IMG/VR virus record: IMGVR_UViG_3300035676_000001
DNA from: a virus
Taxonomy: Duplodnaviria; Caudoviricetes
DNA length: 64,000 bases
Strand: one strand, 5' to 3'
Shown here: in pieces, positions 18,953 through 45,454 of the stretch
Numbering within the stretch: position 1 is the first letter of the stretch
Layout of the letters: every line of letters begins with the position of its first letter
The notes under the pieces: model-generated
Told to the model about the DNA's origin: nothing
The model's input: only the letters and a program-made list of their open reading frames with translations
The model's database searches: none
Translations under genes and position numbers: made by a program

Positions 18953-18960
18953 TATTTATA
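18953..18960 (-). promoter_or_regulatory. Late promoter TATAAATA upstream of gp22
   Basis: Exact T4 late consensus in the intergenic gap. Confidence 0.75.
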
Positions 18961-20348: not shown

Positions 20349-20375
20349 AAAATTGTTTTATTATTATAAGATTAT

Positions 20376-22061
20376 TTATATCTTCCCACCTTTGGGCTCT
20401 GCAGGAACTTCAGGTGCTGCTGGTTCCATTGGAACTTCTCCCATCGCGGGTTGTTCCGCTCCCATAGGTGCCGCTCCTCCTTCTGGAATTGGGTTACCCA
20501 TTTCGTCTACTGGAGCATTGGGGTCTGGAAGAATACCTTTTTGAATTTCATCTTCAATCTGCTCATCAATTTCAATAATTTCAGAATCAGTTTGACGAAG
20601 AACTTTTTTGCGAACATATTCGGTAGAGTAATACTTACCAATATAAGGTTCCATTTGAGTCATTAGAGTCAAACGATTGGTAATCAGTTCTGCCTCTTTG
20701 AGTTCTGCAAAATGATTATCGTATAAGAAATCATATTGAATATGATCGCTCATTTTATCCCAATCTTCTGGAGATACGATATTCTTGAGAAGAAGTTGAG
20801 TGCGAAGTAAGTCATTGAACATATTTGCAAAACGCTTTCTTAAGCGTCCTACAAATTTGGAGAACTTGAGTTCATCTCTTAAAATTTCTGATGAACGACC
20901 AAGATTGAATCCATCTCCTCCACCAGCAATTCTGGTTTCAGGAACTGCAAGTGCTCTATAAAGTTTTTTCTGGAAATATTCGATGTCGGAAAGTTCGCCA
21001 AGATTCTGACCGCCAGGAAGAGTTGTTATTTCTGTACCGCGACCACCTTCACGGCGAGGTAACCAGAAATCCTCAAGCATACTCATAAACTTGCGGTCAT
21101 CACGAACCTCACCTGTGTTTGCATCATACACAAGCTTGTTACGATAACGACTCATAACATCCTTAAGATATTGCTCTGCCTTTACCTTAGGAAGATTACC
21201 TACATCAATATAGAAGATTCTTCTTTCTGGGGCTCTCGATAATCTATAAATTACTAGAGAATCCTCAATCATACGAAGTTGATTGAGTGCCTTGATTGCC
21301 TTATGGAGATATGATAGAACTGTTCCTTTATTTCTATCAATCAATCCCGATGTACAATATGTGATAGAATCCTTAGCAATCTTTACCCCACCCTTTGCTG
21401 AACCAGAAATTGTTCCTGATGGATAATTTGGAGTTGGACTATAAATGAAATACTCTTCAATTTCTGGGAAATTAGTTTGCTCATTACTAAAGTTCCCACT
21501 CATAATGGTTCTATTCGTCAGAAGAGAATTTCGGTCATTTGGATCCGCCTTCTTTTCTTGGCGAACATGCTTCATCTTCATTGGATCAATATACCTGAGT
21601 TCCTTAATTCCTTCCTCAGGTTTTTTTACATCAATAACTTTTAGATAAAAAACACGACCATCTACATACCAATTCCTAAAGATTTCATGGCACTTCTTAT
21701 CGAAGTCCATAATTTCTTTGATATATCTGAACTCATCTCTAATAATTTTCTTTAACTTATCACTAGCATTTAAATTTGATAATTCAATTTCTACTGGAGA
21801 ATCATAGAGGTCACTTACAATCGCTTCATTAACAATATCTTCAATCGCAGAATCACATTCTGGATGCAAAGACATCTCACGATATCTACGAATTAAATCG
21901 TACTCAGTTCTGTAGACACCTTCGATATCTACATACTGTCCATAAAAACCCGATTGAATATAATAATCAACCCCGTCCTCATTGTTAGGAGGTACGGGGG
22001 AAACTATAGATTTGGATTTTTTTTCGTTATCCTCAATCGAAAAACCAAAAAGTTTCGCCAT
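20376..22061 (-). CDS. gp20: Portal protein gp20
   Basis: YLHKAIKALNQLRMIEDSLVIYRLSRAPERRIFYIDVGNLP and EDFWLPRREGGRGTEITTLPGGQNLG. Confidence 0.99.
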   Translation of the reverse strand: MAKLFGFSIEDNEKKSKSIVSPVPPNNEDGVDYYIQSGFYGQYVDIEGVYRTEYDLIRRYREMSLHPECDSAIEDIVNEAIVSDLYDSPVEIELSNLNASDKLKKIIRDEFRYIKEIMDFDKKCHEIFRNWYVDGRVFYLKVIDVKKPEEGIKELRYIDPMKMKHVRQEKKADPNDRNSLLTNRTIMSGNFSNEQTNFPEIEEYFIYSPTPNYPSGTISGSAKGGVKIAKDSITYCTSGLIDRNKGTVLSYLHKAIKALNQLRMIEDSLVIYRLSRAPERRIFYIDVGNLPKVKAEQYLKDVMSRYRNKLVYDANTGEVRDDRKFMSMLEDFWLPRREGGRGTEITTLPGGQNLGELSDIEYFQKKLYRALAVPETRIAGGGDGFNLGRSSEILRDELKFSKFVGRLRKRFANMFNDLLRTQLLLKNIVSPEDWDKMSDHIQYDFLYDNHFAELKEAELITNRLTLMTQMEPYIGKYYSTEYVRKKVLRQTDSEIIEIDEQIEDEIQKGILPDPNAPVDEMGNPIPEGGAAPMGAEQPAMGEVPMEPAAPEVPAEPKGGKI

Positions 22062-24851: not shown

Positions 24852-24915
24852 CTTTATTCTCCGTGCTATCCAGAATTATCTAAAAGTATTTATAAATTCC
24901 CACGACTTCACAGAA

Positions 24916-32266: not shown

Positions 32267-33064
32267 TTAGATATCCTTTTGTTGTGTAGGGCTCCAAGTC
32301 TTGGAGTCATTGAAGAATTCCCAATTTTCGCTGAATCCAAAATCATCGTCTGGACCAGCATCAATTGGATCTGGTTCAACGGTATATCTCATTTCTCTCT
32401 TCGCAGTTGTTCTATTCGTATCAGCATAAACATCAACCTGAACCTTACGAATCAGACCCTCAGTGCTCTCTGCAATAGGACCAAACAGATAGGTTTTTGC
32501 TGTAAAATTGAAGGTATAAATCATAATTCTTCTTGTTGAAAAATCACCCTCATAATCATCGGTAAAGGAAACATTATCTAAAGTTATTGGAATATCTCTT
32601 TTTTCTCCGATTGAATCTACCAAATCTATAGACAAGGTAAATGCTGGTTGAAAATATGGAAGAATTTGCTCAACTACTTGAAGAGCATCATCTTGTAGTT
32701 TAGTCATCAAATTTAATTGAAATCCAATGTTGTAAGGAACTGGAAGATAGACCTTTTTTAGATTCGTTCCATCAGATGCTTTAAAGGTTTGAGTCACATT
32801 TGCCTTTCTTGTAGCATCATATTGAATTGATGTCATTTCAAATGATAGTCTTGGAAGAGTCATTGCGACTGGTTTATTTAACTCTGCCTGCTGTTCAATT
32901 CTTGCAAGAAACTTTTGAGTGGGACCATATGCCAAAGGAACTTTCATTTCACTGATGCTATCTCCAGTGGAGTCTTTATGTCTAATGTAAATATCATTAA
33001 ACAAAGTTCCGAATGAGATAACGGTTCTTCTAATAATTTCGTGATAAAAATAAGTCCCTAACAT
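32267..33064 (-). CDS. gp15: Tail sheath stabiliser / tail terminator gp15
   Basis: YFYHEIIRR...FGTLFN, VPLAYGPTQKFLARI, LPRLSFE and EQILPYFQP. Confidence 0.95.
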   Translation of the reverse strand: MLGTYFYHEIIRRTVISFGTLFNDIYIRHKDSTGDSISEMKVPLAYGPTQKFLARIEQQAELNKPVAMTLPRLSFEMTSIQYDATRKANVTQTFKASDGTNLKKVYLPVPYNIGFQLNLMTKLQDDALQVVEQILPYFQPAFTLSIDLVDSIGEKRDIPITLDNVSFTDDYEGDFSTRRIMIYTFNFTAKTYLFGPIAESTEGLIRKVQVDVYADTNRTTAKREMRYTVEPDPIDAGPDDDFGFSENWEFFNDSKTWSPTQQKDI

Positions 33065-34455
33065 TAATAAGTACCGAATGGATTTGACTGTGAAAAATCT
33101 ATAAAAGTATCTGCTTCGTTTTCTATTTCAATATTTTCACTGTATTTATCATAAAGATCCCAACGGTCATATGACTGGACAGAATAAATTGCATTTGATT
33201 CAGATCCAACAATATTTTCTCCAGGATAAAATCCTTTAGTGGCAGCATTATCAACGAAAGAAATTTTGAGAATCTTGGTATCCGCATCCCAAGATTTAAC
33301 TCTTGCAGTTGTTCCTGAATTTGATCCAGTAACGACTTCATTATATAAGTATGTACCCACTCCAACTAAAGTTGTTGGTGGTGCAATAGTAACTGTTGGG
33401 GCAACTGTATATCCTACTCCAGGATTTGCAATTCTGATAGAACTTATACTTTGTCCTAATCCTACAATAGGTTTTGCTACAGCAGTTTCTCCAGTTCCAA
33501 CAGATCCTGTAATGGTGACAATTGGTGAAGATACGTATCCAGTACCATTGGAAGTCACTACAAAATTGGAAATTCCATTTCTAATAGTTTCAATTGAACA
33601 AGTTGCTGCTGCACCAGAACCACCACCACCAGAAAATGTGATTGATGGTGCTATAGTGTATCCTGCTCCAGCATTTGTAAGTATGATAGATTCAATTGAA
33701 TATACACCTGCTCTAGATGTAGTTATCGCTACTGCAGATGCATTATATCCACCATATGGAGCAGATGTAATCGCAACCGTTGGAGTTGATGTATAATCAT
33801 ATCCATCATTATTTAAGAATATTTCTCGAATGTATCCAGTAGATATGATCGCATCTGCTGTGGCAACCGAACGTGAACTGATTAATTGTAGAGTTGTGAT
33901 ATATCCTTGGTCTTCAATTTGGGTATCAATTTCGTCTATCGTAGTATCAATAACCTCATCCTCATATTCGAAGAGTTCACATTTTAATTCATAAACGTAA
34001 AGTTTTCCTAATTGATAAAAATTAACCTCATGCTCAACAAACTTTACTTCAAATAATCTTTGCCCAAGTGGGAAATAAACTAAGTCACCCTCTCTAGGTC
34101 TGGATGATAATACAATTTCATTATCATCACTATCTTCTAAAAATGGAGAAATAAAGTCTTCAAATCTTTCTTTTGATATAATTATGCTTAGTTCGTCTTT
34201 TAAACTCATACCAAATTTGGTAAGAATATCACCCTGCCCACTGTATCCTTCAAAATTATTAATATATGCTTCAATTGCAAAATTATCATCAAACTTTGAT
34301 GATTGAATTTCTCTAAGAATAGATTGTTTCCTTACAAATTTTCTTGGGATGTAGATAACATCCACACCATAAATCTTTAACTGTTCATTAATTAGATCCT
34401 GAACGAGTCTTTGTTCACCGGGTGAACCTTGTAAGAAAAAGGGATTAAGTGCCAT
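33064..34455 (-). CDS. gp14: Neck protein gp14 with inserted Gly/Thr-rich beta modules
   Basis: NPFFLQGS...EQRLVQDLINE, RPREGDLVYFP, YELKCELFEY and a C-terminal IDFSQSNPFG. Confidence 0.92.
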   Translation of the reverse strand: MALNPFFLQGSPGEQRLVQDLINEQLKIYGVDVIYIPRKFVRKQSILREIQSSKFDDNFAIEAYINNFEGYSGQGDILTKFGMSLKDELSIIISKERFEDFISPFLEDSDDNEIVLSSRPREGDLVYFPLGQRLFEVKFVEHEVNFYQLGKLYVYELKCELFEYEDEVIDTTIDEIDTQIEDQGYITTLQLISSRSVATADAIISTGYIREIFLNNDGYDYTSTPTVAITSAPYGGYNASAVAITTSRAGVYSIESIILTNAGAGYTIAPSITFSGGGGSGAAATCSIETIRNGISNFVVTSNGTGYVSSPIVTITGSVGTGETAVAKPIVGLGQSISSIRIANPGVGYTVAPTVTIAPPTTLVGVGTYLYNEVVTGSNSGTTARVKSWDADTKILKISFVDNAATKGFYPGENIVGSESNAIYSVQSYDRWDLYDKYSENIEIENEADTFIDFSQSNPFGTY

Positions 34456-34457
34456 TA

Positions 34458-35300
34458 TTATCCAATAAAATCGTATGGTGGGAGTTCGTATTCTAAAGCC
34501 ATTCTTTGCTTCAGGTCTTCTAATTCTCTTTCAGCATCTTCATAGAGTTCTCTACCATTTAGTTCAATTCCTCCAGGAAGTTTTACTCCTCTAAATTTAA
34601 TCAAGTTCTGCCCCCACTGCCTTTTCATAAGAGCAGTTAAATATTTTTTAAGGAAACTGTCATTATAAACTTTAGTAAATTCTGTCGGATTTAAAATTCT
34701 ATAACAATCTATAATAATAAAGGTATCTTTATTCTGGGCATTCCAATCAATATCAAGATACATTCTATTCTGTCTCTTGTTAAATCTAATTTGTTTATCT
34801 GTGGTTAGAAGAAAATCAATATCTTCCAGATAACTCTTAACCATAGCATATTGTAAAAGTTCAACTGAGTTAAAGTAATATAAATCATTCAAAAACAGTT
34901 GATATTTAATACTAAACATTCCACCAGAAATGGAACTAGTGTCAAACTTAAATACCTTTTCAATTCCAATTACGGAATCTGGAACTTGAATAAAATTTGA
35001 AGATTCGTAGAAATTAAAACTAGTAGTTCCAATACCACTAATATTTGCTGTACCAGTTGTTGTTACAATACCAACACCATTTGTATTTTTTGCTCTTCCT
35101 CTGTTAATATCTTCGTCTGTAAGTTTGTACTTTAAGTACATTCTTTCAACACCATCAAAGTGTCTTTCTTGAAAGTACTGTAAAGCATCGTCAACCAAAT
35201 CATCAATTTGGTCATCATCTATATTGATTTCCAATACAGGAGCACCAAGTCTTCTAAGACAATAATCAATTAATTCTTGTCTACTTGCTGGCTTTGCCAT
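34458..35300 (-). CDS. gp13: Neck protein gp13
   Basis: YCLRRLGAPVLEIN, KRQWGQNLIKF and LPGGIELNG. Start trimmed to 35300. Confidence 0.95.
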   Translation of the reverse strand: MAKPASRQELIDYCLRRLGAPVLEINIDDDQIDDLVDDALQYFQERHFDGVERMYLKYKLTDEDINRGRAKNTNGVGIVTTTGTANISGIGTTSFNFYESSNFIQVPDSVIGIEKVFKFDTSSISGGMFSIKYQLFLNDLYYFNSVELLQYAMVKSYLEDIDFLLTTDKQIRFNKRQNRMYLDIDWNAQNKDTFIIIDCYRILNPTEFTKVYNDSFLKKYLTALMKRQWGQNLIKFRGVKLPGGIELNGRELYEDAERELEDLKQRMALEYELPPYDFIG

Positions 35301-35938
35301 TAGTACGAGCCTCCATCTATAGCATTTGACCAAGCTGGAACACCAGCATTATCTGTTGTCATTATATAGTTTGTATAATCAATCCCATTTTGTGGACTTG
35401 ATGTTGATATCAAAAGTCCGGAAGAATTGAAATATGCCATCCCATTTGTATAATATGGTCCATAATATAACCCACCAGAAATGGTTGCAATTCCAGATAT
35501 TATTGCATTTCTAGCGGTAAATTCATCAAATTTTAAATCATCACTAACATATAAATCACCATCAACATAAACATCATTTTTAAAAGTACTAATACCTACG
35601 AATGTAGATACCCCAGTTACATTTAAATTGAATAATGTTGCAATTCCAGATATTATTGCATTTCTAGCGGTAAATTCATCAAATTTTAAATCATCACCGA
35701 CGTACAGGTCGCCATCAATGTAAACATTACTTTTAAATGTGCTTACACCAACGAACGTTGATATTCCACTTACGTGTAAAGATGTAACTGATGCAATTCC
35801 ACCAATAACATTTTCTGCCGTTGTTGATCTTCCACCTGCAGATCCAGAAATGCTAGCAACAATTTTTACAGCATTTTGCTGTCCAACCCTAGTTTTTATT
35901 GCATTTTGTTGATCAACTTTGACTTTAATATCTGCCAT
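35300..35938 (-). CDS. Hypothetical virion protein with a 51-aa tandem duplication
   Basis: DGDLYV.DDLKFDEFTARNAIISGIAT occurs twice. C-terminal IDGGSY is typical of fibre-associated proteins. Confidence 0.6.
   Translation of the reverse strand: MADIKVKVDQQNAIKTRVGQQNAVKIVASISGSAGGRSTTAENVIGGIASVTSLHVSGISTFVGVSTFKSNVYIDGDLYVGDDLKFDEFTARNAIISGIATLFNLNVTGVSTFVGISTFKNDVYVDGDLYVSDDLKFDEFTARNAIISGIATISGGLYYGPYYTNGMAYFNSSGLLISTSSPQNGIDYTNYIMTTDNAGVPAWSNAIDGGSY
35484..35697. repeat. Two identical 61-nt direct repeats, period 153 nt
   Basis: gttgcaattccagatattattgcatttctagcggtaaattcatcaaattttaaatcatcac at 35484-35544 and 35637-35697. Confidence 0.9.
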
Positions 35939-36282
35939 TATCTGGTAACTCCTTCGGTTACTAGAACCATTCCTTCAATAACTCGGTTTTTAATTCCAAA
36001 ATCATCGGTAATCACAACATCATAAACATATCTACCGGGTTTAATAGTTGTTGTTTGGGCAGCAGTCAATCTAATCGTAATCTTTCCAGAAGATCCTGGA
36101 CTTTCAATGGATGCAGTAAAAGATGTTGCTGTAGAACTTCCTGCCCATTTTCTCATTTGAGCAGAAACAGTATAAAGTGTTAAATCGAATAATGAATTTG
36201 TATCTGTTCCTTCTAGAGTAAATGTTTGGCTAAAGTCACTGCCAGCATTCACTACTATATTATTAACATATACTGCAGCCAT
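35938..36282 (-). CDS. Hypothetical virion protein (single Ig-like domain)
   Basis: GSDFSQTF...AQMRK...GKITIRLTAAQT...GRYVYDV pattern. TATAAATA at 36305-36312 upstream. Confidence 0.6.
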   Translation of the reverse strand: MAAVYVNNIVVNAGSDFSQTFTLEGTDTNSLFDLTLYTVSAQMRKWAGSSTATSFTASIESPGSSGKITIRLTAAQTTTIKPGRYVYDVVITDDFGIKNRVIEGMVLVTEGVTR

Positions 36283-36307
36283 TTATTTTTTAAGCTCTAC
36301 TTTTTAT

Positions 36308-36484
36308 TTATATCCCCAAATCACCGAGAGAACTCATCACCTCTTGTTGCTTGAGATATAGTTTACAATATAATTTTGAAAATTTTTTAAGTTCTTCGTG
36401 ATCTAATTCATCGATTAATCGTGAATGTTTTTCAAATTCAAATAACTTATTAATTGTTTCCAATTCAATTTCATTTGGTTCCAT
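36308..36484 (-). CDS. nblA: NblA-like phycobilisome degradation adaptor (58 aa, not in ORF track)
   Basis: MEPNEIELETINKLFEFEKHSRLIDELDHEELKKFSKLYCKLYLKQQEVMSSLGDLGI. Two-helix pattern with L-x-T-I-x-x-x-FEF, resembling cyanobacterial NblA as I recall it. Confidence 0.65.
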   Translation of the reverse strand: MEPNEIELETINKLFEFEKHSRLIDELDHEELKKFSKLYCKLYLKQQEVMSSLGDLGI

Positions 36485-36674
36485 TAACTAACTCCTTAAG
36501 TAATAATTTTATTTCATCAATATCTTTTTTCATCTGATCTAATTCTCTTTTTTGAGTATCACGATTGTTTAAACTATTTACATATTGATTATAGGAGTAA
36601 TTATCACAATTGATAATTGCTCCTGTTTTTTCGTCACGATATAAGTTAGGATGCCCTTTAACTGGAATCATCAT
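36471..36674 (-). CDS. Small conserved hypothetical protein
   Basis: IPVKGHPNLYRDEKTGAIIN followed by a coiled coil. Overlaps the stop of the 2395-aa gene. Confidence 0.65.
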   Translation of the reverse strand: MMIPVKGHPNLYRDEKTGAIINCDNYSYNQYVNSLNNRDTQKRELDQMKKDIDEIKLLLKELVNGTK

Positions 36675-43861: not shown

Positions 43862-45421
43862 TTAGAATTCCAGGATAATTTTAACGTCTTCTTTTTGTCT
43901 AGAACTTCTTGTTACTGTGGGTCTATTATCAATGTAGATTATATCACCTGACTTATTATTTATCTCTGGATTTGCAAGACCGTTTGTAAATTGAACTCCG
44001 AGATTTATAATTTTATTTGAAATTGATGTAGTGATTCCAGAGAAAGAACTATCAATAGAAGCATTAAACCCACCAGCAACTTTGGAAACTTGATTAGTTG
44101 AATTAAATTGAAGAACTTTTCCAGATGTTGATAATCCAACATAATCTGTTTGGTCATAAGTTGTTGGATTAAAATATAAAGATCTATCTTGATAATATTT
44201 CAGAACTTTGGTTTCCGAATCATATGATGCAACATATCCAACAGCAGTTCCACCAGTAACAGATTGTTGAATCTTATCTCCAACAGAAATACTTCCAGTT
44301 GGTGTACCGCTGAATTTCATTGCATAAACTGCAGAAAATTCACTAGAAGTAAATTTGGAAGTATTAATTCCTGTAGAGTCATATACAGTTGGGTTTTTTA
44401 AAATTCCAACTTGCGAGAATTTAGTATCTATTGGAAAATCTTTCGTTGAATCGTCAAATCTCGCATAAATTAAAACTTTATCCGCTCCAAGTTCTTTATA
44501 GATATCAAATCCGTGACCCTTGGATGGTGGAATAATAGGAATTAATTCGGCATATGTTCCTGGATTCCCAGTTGTTCCCAAATCTACAAGAGCATATGTG
44601 TAATTCTTTCCACCAGAAGTTACTGTAGCATCAGTAATTCTCCCAGAGGTATCTACATCCAAGGATACTGTCGCCCCACTACCATCACCAATGATATTAC
44701 AAGTTTGACCCGATGTTAGAGTGTATCCCAGACCTCTATTCTGAATATATACTTTTTTTAATTGATTATCATTTAAAGTTGAATCGCCGTTTTCTCTAAC
44801 GGCAGTTATCTGAGAATCTGTAGTAGTTTGCCAATCATTTGGAACGGTAATATATTCGATAGAGTCAAATTTAATAATATCACTTGGAGAGACGGTATAT
44901 AAGTATTTCCAAATATATCCATCACCACTTTCACCAGCTCGTGAAGGTTCTAAATCGGTAAAAGTTGGTTCATCTTGAGAGGAATTTCCTGTAGTATTAA
45001 TTCCAGATGAACCATTATCAATACAAATATAGACTCTATAATCAGAATTCATTACATAATAATTAGCATCGTACAATCTCATTGCACCTGTAATTGGTGA
45101 TGGATTTACAACACTATAATCGGGTCTATACATTTCATATTTTGTACCTTCAACCCAATCTATTCTTCTAATTACTCTTCTAATATTTGCACTTGTAATT
45201 TTTTTACCAAAAAGAGCAGTAGTTTCATAATGATTCAAATAATCAATATTATCTGTTGGATTTGGAGGTGTAGTATCCCAATTAGAATCTCTACCAAATC
45301 CAGAAGTTGTTGGATTGGATAAACCAACAAATACATAATATGAATTTGTAGAATCCTGAACAGAATCTATAAAATTAGATGCATTCAGGATTCTAAATTG
45401 ATCTGTTACAAGTGCAGACAT
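43862..45421 (-). CDS. gp8: Baseplate wedge protein gp8
   Basis: YYVFVG, YRVYICIDN, DGYIWKYLY and EDVKIILEF. TATAAATA at 45442-45449 upstream. Confidence 0.85.
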   Translation of the reverse strand: MSALVTDQFRILNASNFIDSVQDSTNSYYVFVGLSNPTTSGFGRDSNWDTTPPNPTDNIDYLNHYETTALFGKKITSANIRRVIRRIDWVEGTKYEMYRPDYSVVNPSPITGAMRLYDANYYVMNSDYRVYICIDNGSSGINTTGNSSQDEPTFTDLEPSRAGESGDGYIWKYLYTVSPSDIIKFDSIEYITVPNDWQTTTDSQITAVRENGDSTLNDNQLKKVYIQNRGLGYTLTSGQTCNIIGDGSGATVSLDVDTSGRITDATVTSGGKNYTYALVDLGTTGNPGTYAELIPIIPPSKGHGFDIYKELGADKVLIYARFDDSTKDFPIDTKFSQVGILKNPTVYDSTGINTSKFTSSEFSAVYAMKFSGTPTGSISVGDKIQQSVTGGTAVGYVASYDSETKVLKYYQDRSLYFNPTTYDQTDYVGLSTSGKVLQFNSTNQVSKVAGGFNASIDSSFSGITTSISNKIINLGVQFTNGLANPEINNKSGDIIYIDNRPTVTRSSRQKEDVKIILEF

Positions 45422-45454
45422 TTGAATATAGTTTTTTTCTATATTTATACTATG

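Follow-up and report, generated by a model that had tools for sequence, protein, structure and literature searches.

A 58-amino-acid open reading frame (ORF) in the structural module of a cyanomyovirus is a real gene under purifying selection, and its product is probably a distant homologue of NblA, an adaptor protein that sets off the degradation of the light-harvesting antenna in cyanobacteria. The ORF lies in a stretch of 64,000 nt of viral DNA (hereafter the window), the whole of which is one long string of minus-strand genes constituting the structural module of a T4-like cyanomyovirus. This module includes genes for a gp7-like protein (3957 aa), a VrlC/DUF4815 protein, gp13 and gp14. By analogy with NblA, phycobilisome degradation may well be the function of the ORF product.

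An NblA-like identity had been proposed in an earlier note on this DNA that was made from its letters alone. The proposal draws support from the predicted fold of the protein, from a weak profile-profile match that agrees with the fold in its register, from a match in the ESM Atlas and from HHpred results published for orthologues. The Pfam model for NblA and the C-terminal Trp of that family, in contrast, speak against it. Furthermore, the family to which the ORF belongs has already been published as a predicted nblA of cyanomyoviruses, and the window ORF mainly re-discovers this prediction.

A conserved small gene among virion genes

The extent of the ORF and its 14 nt overlap with the upstream gene proved to be as the earlier note described them, and all of these features reside on the minus strand (Table 1). 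The ORF also fills the gap in front of a promoter-like motif, as had been claimed. The description of the gene as hidden is true only of the ORF track available for that first reading, in which it was missing, whereas gene callers do call it and GenBank carries it as a hypothetical protein.

Table 1. Features surrounding the NblA-like ORF and positions of late-promoter-like motifs in the window
Feature	Coordinates	Strand	Remarks
TATAAATA, candidate late promoter for the transcript of the NblA-like ORF	45442..45449	minus	20 nt before gene 43862..45421
VrlC/DUF4815 virion protein, 2395 aa	36671..43858	minus	4 nt overlap with next gene; same gene string
Upstream neighbour, 67-aa virion structural protein	36471..36674	minus	phrog_473; T4-like gene cluster 112 (GC112)
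Shine-Dalgarno sequence AAGGAG	36492..36497	minus	7 nt 5′ of the ATG of the ORF, within the 3′ end of the upstream gene
Gene overlap, 14 nt	36471..36484	minus	TGA stop of the upstream virion gene over the start of the NblA-like ORF
NblA-like ORF, 58 aa	36308..36484	minus	ATG start, TAA stop
TATAAATA, T4-type late-promoter-like motif	36305..36312	minus	overlaps the TAA of the NblA-like ORF; 22 nt to next start (36282)
Downstream neighbour, 114-aa LtfC-like beta-sandwich protein	35938..36282	minus	phrog_3304; annotated 'L-shaped tail fiber protein assembly'
Farther downstream: baseplate-wedge-like repeat protein (35300..35938), then gp13 and gp14 neck genes	33064..35938	minus
All TATAAATA sites	560-567, 18953-18960, 20373-20380, 24887-24894, 36305-36312, 45442-45449	minus

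Four lines of evidence establish that the ORF is a gene. Comparison with the orthologue in phage S-SRM01, which is 74% identical, yields a dN/dS value of 0.13, where dS is saturated (about 1.5). Relatives of the protein are numerous, forming 201 clusters at 90% identity and 121 clusters at 50% identity (E<=1e-3), and both length and motifs are conserved across these 121 clusters. The ORF product is matched over its full length (E 2.5e-18) by the HMM of phrog_27081, a small cyanomyovirus protein of unknown function, such that ORF residues 1-54 fall on positions 1-55 of the 59 in the profile. Finally, S-SRM01 and S-SM2 retain both the Shine-Dalgarno sequence and the overlap ATGGAxCCAAATGA. The overlap of stop and start codons suggests that translation of the ORF is coupled to that of the upstream virion structural gene. 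In addition, a protein identical to that of the window is encoded on 13 metagenome contigs, where the gene order is unchanged and the gene is called by gene callers.

Across the phrog_27081-type family, L8, F15, K41, L42, Q47 and E48 are nearly invariant, and the consensus reads roughly M-x-P-x-x-I-x-L-x4-K-x-FEYEK-x-SR-x-ID...KLYLKQQE. GenBank records mostly label the orthologues 'hypothetical protein', and the copies in S-SCSM1 and S-SCSM2R are named NblA there. A 58-aa relative with 78% identity (P0034) bears the JGI name 'ferredoxin-thioredoxin reductase catalytic subunit', which is almost certainly a mis-annotation.

Among the neighbours, the 212-aa product of the gene at 35300-35938 (minus strand) contains two internal repeats of about 50 aa with the motif ...GISTFVG(V/I)STFK.(N/D)VY(I/V)DGDLYV.DDLKFDEFTARNAIISGIAT... 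These repeats match repeat segments in giant baseplate-wedge proteins (phrog_8215, phrog_1469).

Sequence comparison with NblA

A search with the Pfam model of NblA (PF04485, gathering score 25 bits) had been named in the earlier note as a check on its claim, and at the level of HMMER the outcome goes against that claim. In hmmscan runs, neither the ORF product nor any of 98 family members (35 close and 63 diverse relatives) matched PF04485 at E<=10. A six-frame search of the genomes of S-TIM61, S-SRM01, S-SCSM1 and S-SM2, all of which carry the family, likewise produced no match to this model; in the same run, the validated NblA of S-TIP37 scored 28 bits and thus exceeded the cut-off. HMMER searches of PDB sequences (phmmer, hmmsearch) did not find NblA, and all hits, among them AcrIIA15 at E 0.6, were at chance level. 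According to Nadel et al. (bioRxiv 10.1101/494369), the Pfam profile gives marine phage NblAs poor scores, and the literature notes that picocyanobacterial NblAs, too, often fall below it.

Comparison of profiles by hhalign yielded a weak match. The reference NblAs comprised seven cyanobacterial plasmid proteins together with NblAs of the Ma-LMM01-type and T7-like phages, to which four more were later added. When the family profile was aligned with the mixed NblA alignment, P was about 0.005 over 51-52 colinear columns, and with the cyanobacterial and Ma-LMM01-type NblAs it was 0.0014; across reference sets, the P values of 0.0014-0.0054 span 38-52 colinear columns. The T7-like phage NblA clade on its own gave no match to the family profile. 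The real score was 19.2, whereas 200 shuffles of the columns reached at most 14.3 (mean 9.5, sd 1.7) and two single-reversal controls gave 10.9 and 11.9. The hhalign probability for the match, calculated without secondary-structure scoring, was low (7-18%).

The alignment to NblA that the earlier note had drawn by eye, with L8, T10-I11 and F15-E16-F17 as its anchors and a one-residue gap, has the same register as that found by hhalign. Whether sequences or structures are aligned, L8 and F15 of the family, each at least 90% conserved, fall on the Leu and the Phe of L-[ST]-x-E-Q-x-F, the N-terminal motif of NblA. This motif is reported to bind ClpC (PMC4103541), and the C-terminal motif of NblA is reported to bind phycobiliproteins. 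The phage family does not conserve the N-terminal E-Q, in whose place it has variable residues and Lys. Furthermore, the conserved C-terminal Trp (W56, invariant in our reference NblA alignment A4) is absent from the phage family, whose members end at the equivalent position and carry an invariant KLYLKQQE block of their own instead. Judged by the Pfam model or by the C-terminal motif, the family therefore falls outside NblA.

Predicted fold

The earlier note had also looked to a helix-loop-helix dimer as a mark of NblA. The AlphaFold2 model built from the family alignment is a helix-loop-helix (mean pLDDT 85.5), with helix 1 formed by residues 8-25, a loop by residues 26-28 and helix 2 by residues 29-55. 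When representatives of the PDB (48,161 chains) were searched exhaustively with this model, crystal structures of NblA took ranks 1, 3 and 5. The NblA chains matched were 1ojh_A (Z 6.4, 52/52 residues covered), 2q8v_A (Z 5.8, 50/53 residues covered) and 3cs5_A (Z 5.5, rmsd 1.4 Å, 48/48 residues covered). These Z scores of 5.5-6.4 are modest and lie in the range where the search tool warns of a common helical arrangement. The structural argument for NblA is instead that the representatives of one tiny family all appear at the top, that coverage is full length and that the register equals that of the sequence alignment. Gapless alignment at offsets of +2, -3 and -1 puts F15 on the conserved Phe of NblA (F13 in 1ojh, F18 in 2q8v and F16 in 3cs5, respectively), and hhalign had independently given the same register.

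Cyanobacterial NblAs (PF04485; 1OJH, 2Q8V/2QDO, 3CS5) thus resemble the ORF product in being about 60 aa long and in forming a helix-loop-helix that superposes over its full length, where the loop coincides in position and helix 1 has its conserved Leu and Phe in alignment. Sequence identity between them is about 10%, however, and PF04485 does not detect the ORF product with HMMER.

Searches of the ESM Atlas point in the same direction. In the search by shape, a cluster assigned to PF04485 (99%) was the only full-length match of similar size beyond the family's own clusters (TM 0.69/0.71). The search by features placed an NblA cluster at 0.76, a value that is useful as a lead only. A Foldseek search of the model against the PDB found nothing. 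As a positive control, an AlphaFold2 model of an S-TIP37-type NblA (pLDDT 76.5) was submitted to the structural search, and the NblAs of the PDB were not among its top 50 matches. This result indicates that the search is not sensitive to every true NblA, and also that matches to NblA are not generic to two-helix models of similar size.

The dimer of NblA is an open bundle of four helices. For the ORF product, prediction of a complex of two copies gave a score of 0.34, below the 0.42 mark, in a single run that counts neither for nor against a dimer. Some metagenomic relatives are longer than the ORF product. One of them (P0130, 134 aa) is a natural tandem fusion in which two phrog_27081 stretches are present in one polypeptide, an arrangement that would fit a dimeric functional unit without proving one. 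Two others carry an NblA-like domain fused to a phrog_3426 domain of roughly 65 aa, whose function is unknown. The two domains occur in both orders, with the NblA-like domain at the C-terminus in P0167 (134 aa) and at the N-terminus in P0180 (140 aa). Such fusions suggest that the two small proteins are functionally connected.

Position of the gene in other phages

In S-SRM01 and S-SM2, the family gene occupies the same structural locus as in the window, between the phrog_473/GC112 gene and the LtfC-like gene. For Bellamy and SynMITS9220M01, the annotation underlying the tblastn match suggests the same placement. Elsewhere the surroundings differ. The gene is located between the terminase genes in S-SCSM2R, after a virion protein gene and before a helicase gene in S-SCSM1, within clusters of small ORFs in S-SKS1, S-B43 and S-TIM61 (and probably also in S-TIM5, as judged by the position of the matching hit), and next to restriction-modification genes in DSL-LC03. 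At the structural locus of S-SKS1, the GC112 gene is followed directly by the LtfC-like gene. The GC112 gene is also present in the Prochlorococcus phages P-SSM2 and P-SSM5, where the next ORF is unrelated to the family; PSSM2_117, the P-SSM2 ORF at the equivalent position, was considered as a family member and rejected. The NblA-like gene therefore moves between genome positions in the manner of an accessory (auxiliary metabolic) gene. Such variable placement is typical of accessory genes and speaks against the protein being indispensable to the virion structure.

These positions bear on the possibility that the protein is an unrelated helical hairpin that has come to look like NblA by convergence, and that it serves as an assembly chaperone or minor component of the VrlC/tail-fibre module or as a small regulator. 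A role of this kind would suit a gene of a structural operon whose translation appears to be coupled to that of a virion gene. It would also be consistent with the absence of similarity to NblA at the HMMER level, with the frequent occurrence of two-helix hairpins, with the modest Z scores and with fusions that involve only another domain of unknown function, phrog_3426. However, the position of the gene is not conserved, its relatives also occur in non-structural regions, and the structural locus of S-SKS1 does without it. Moreover, convergence would have to account for the high ranks of the NblA structures among the chains searched, with full-length alignments in the register of the sequence comparison, for the failure of another two-helix model of similar size to retrieve NblA, and for published HHpred values of 95-97% for orthologues. 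We consider an unrelated hairpin unlikely.

Relationship to published NblA proteins and hosts

Several members of the family have previously been predicted to be NblAs. Wang et al. (2022; PMC9602691) predicted ORF237 of S-SCSM1 to be an NblA on the basis of an HHpred value of 95.5% to Nostoc NblA (their Tables S2 and S4), and listed seven myovirus homologues with values of 96.4-97.3% to the NblA of T. vulcanus (their Table S4). This list includes S-SRM01 (QPX48163), Bellamy, S-SKS1, SynMITS9220M01 and S-B43. The predictions of Nadel et al. (bioRxiv 10.1101/494369) concern nblA genes of eleven marine cyanophages and also the S-TIM5 homologue, and further cyanomyovirus predictions cover ORF118 of S-SCSM2R and S-SM2 (PMC9602691, PMC12801897, bioRxiv 10.1101/494369). 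The predicted NblAs of the cyanomyoviruses belong to the same family as the window ORF (phrog_27081), with 37-74% identity to it, the same length and the shared motif FEYEK...KLYLKQQE. The closest orthologue from an isolate is QPX48163 of S-SRM01, which is encoded at the same locus. In contrast to these isolate sequences, the window copy comes from an uncultured freshwater or wetland phage.

NblA function has been demonstrated only in other phage clades, namely S-TIP37 (PMC12695635), the Ma-LMM01 group, PaV-LD and one uncultured marine phage. The validated phage NblAs speed infection and degrade phycobilisomes (PMC12695635). Like the window ORF, the nblA genes of S-TIP37 (T7-like), Ma-LMM01, MaMV-DC and PaV-LD are small accessory genes of phages with phycobilisome-bearing hosts, and the role proposed here for the ORF is the same as theirs. 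Unlike the window ORF, the validated phage NblAs pass the Pfam threshold.

In the course of these comparisons, T7-like cyanophage contigs with nblA (L007-L011, G001-G004) were encountered in MAGs labelled as TMED88 'bacterium', Crocinitomicaceae, Pirellulaceae and Chloroflexota. In one of these MAGs (G002, 'Crocinitomicaceae'), three canonical NblA genes (85-90 bits) are present as well, an indication that cyanobacterial DNA contaminates this bin.

The window DNA is present at a high word share in wetland and freshwater metagenomes from two studies, and a search of sequencing runs listed none of RNA that contains it. Among isolates it is closest to S-SRM01, a freshwater myovirus that infects Synechococcus and came from a reservoir in Singapore, and whose DNA is 85% identical over part of the region. 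The earlier note took the ORF as support for a phycobilisome-bearing host. On its own this argument is weak, because nblA also occurs in T7-like phages of Prochlorococcus, which lacks phycobilisomes (PMC12695635). The host assignment nevertheless gains from the isolates, since each of the 23 isolate records in which the family occurs is that of a Synechococcus phage.

The same observations must be weighed in considering whether the protein is a true relative of the NblA fold that has been repurposed, either as an adaptor (for Clp or another partner) for targets other than phycobiliproteins or as an agent that disassembles antenna rods without proteolysis. The loss of canonical C-terminal features, including the invariant Trp, and of the N-terminal E-Q would be compatible with such a change. 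In addition, the NblA of S-TIP37 directs degradation beyond the phycobilisome proteins, nblA is found in phages of the phycobilisome-less Prochlorococcus (PMC12695635 for both), and S-SCSM1, which carries a homologue, infects Prochlorococcus too. On the other hand, every isolate record with the family derives from Synechococcus, which bears phycobilisomes, and positive evidence for another target is absent. A repurposed protein therefore appears improbable. The idea that the ORF arose by chance in the gap between two structural genes and is no gene at all, to which its shortness (58 aa) and the AT-rich DNA might lend some appeal, is refuted by the conservation data, that is, by the low dN/dS with saturated dS, the 121 clusters that keep length and motifs, the strong conserved Shine-Dalgarno sequence and the PHROG match, and its probability is negligible.

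Transcription of the locus

The motif TATAAATA occurs six times in the window compared with 5.96 occurrences expected by chance, and all six are on the coding strand (Table 1). Four of the six sites are situated 20-35 nt upstream of an ORF start, and in two cases (20373 and 36305) the motif overlaps the preceding gene's stop codon. The six motifs are likely to be T4-type late promoters. The site that overlaps the end of the NblA-like ORF is conserved in S-SRM01. The nearest coding-strand copy upstream of the ORF is that at 45442-45449, and a terminator scan of the interval between this copy and the ORF found no terminator-like site above chance.

Scans of the window for sigma-70-like promoters and terminators returned counts at chance level, and there is no intergenic gap before the NblA-like ORF. 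The best candidate upstream of the ORF, at 36616-36588, is not conserved in S-SM2. An inverted repeat of 13 pairs (12 matched) with a 4 nt loop is present at 36591-36626 inside the upstream gene, about 110-140 nt 5′ of the ORF start, and resembles a terminator for the antisense strand. At the equivalent position, S-SRM01 has a shorter stem in which two changed pairs still pair. This inverted repeat may be a chance feature of the coding sequence.

The overlapping start codon, the absence of a gap, the lack of an above-chance promoter in front of the ORF and the TATAAATA motifs are all consistent with transcription together with late genes. Judged by this gene anatomy, co-transcription of the NblA-like ORF with the VrlC and GC112 late genes, as the earlier note had supposed, would be the simplest reading. 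Such timing would distinguish the ORF from characterized phage nblA genes. In Ma-LMM01 the gene is early, with transcripts at 1 h, and in S-TIP37 it is expressed with DNA-replication genes before morphogenesis, whereas the window ORF sits in a virion morphogenesis operon.

Proposed function and implications

The explanation that we favour, with some reserve, is that the ORF product is a divergent NblA-family protein, belonging to a myovirus clade that is equal to phrog_27081, and that it acts as NblA does. In a mechanism modelled on that of NblA, this small helix-loop-helix protein would dimerise, bind phycobiliproteins of the host and hand them to the host ClpC-ClpP protease. The phycobilisome of a freshwater Synechococcus/Cyanobium-type host would thereby be dismantled and amino acids freed during infection. 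Since the gene is located between virion structural and tail-fibre-assembly-like genes and appears to be translationally coupled, its product would most likely be made together with the late morphogenesis proteins. Dimerisation, the binding of ClpC and phycobiliproteins, bleaching activity and late timing are properties that we infer for this protein.

For a T7-like phage only, recent work has shown that viral NblA accelerates the infection and reduces light harvesting by the host. The NblA-like clade of the T4-like cyanomyoviruses, which are a major group of cyanophages, goes undetected by the Pfam model, and most of its members are annotated as 'hypothetical'. If this clade is functional, phage-driven antenna degradation would extend to freshwater and marine myoviruses. 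Furthermore, the placement of the window gene inside a late structural operon raises a testable question of timing. It is possible, though rather doubtful, that the myovirus NblA-like clade either is expressed late with the virion-morphogenesis genes or has diverged into an adaptor with different targets. Late expression, if true, would mean that antenna breakdown is timed to the peak demand for amino acids for structural proteins, and either late expression or changed targets would make this clade a functionally distinct second type of viral NblA.
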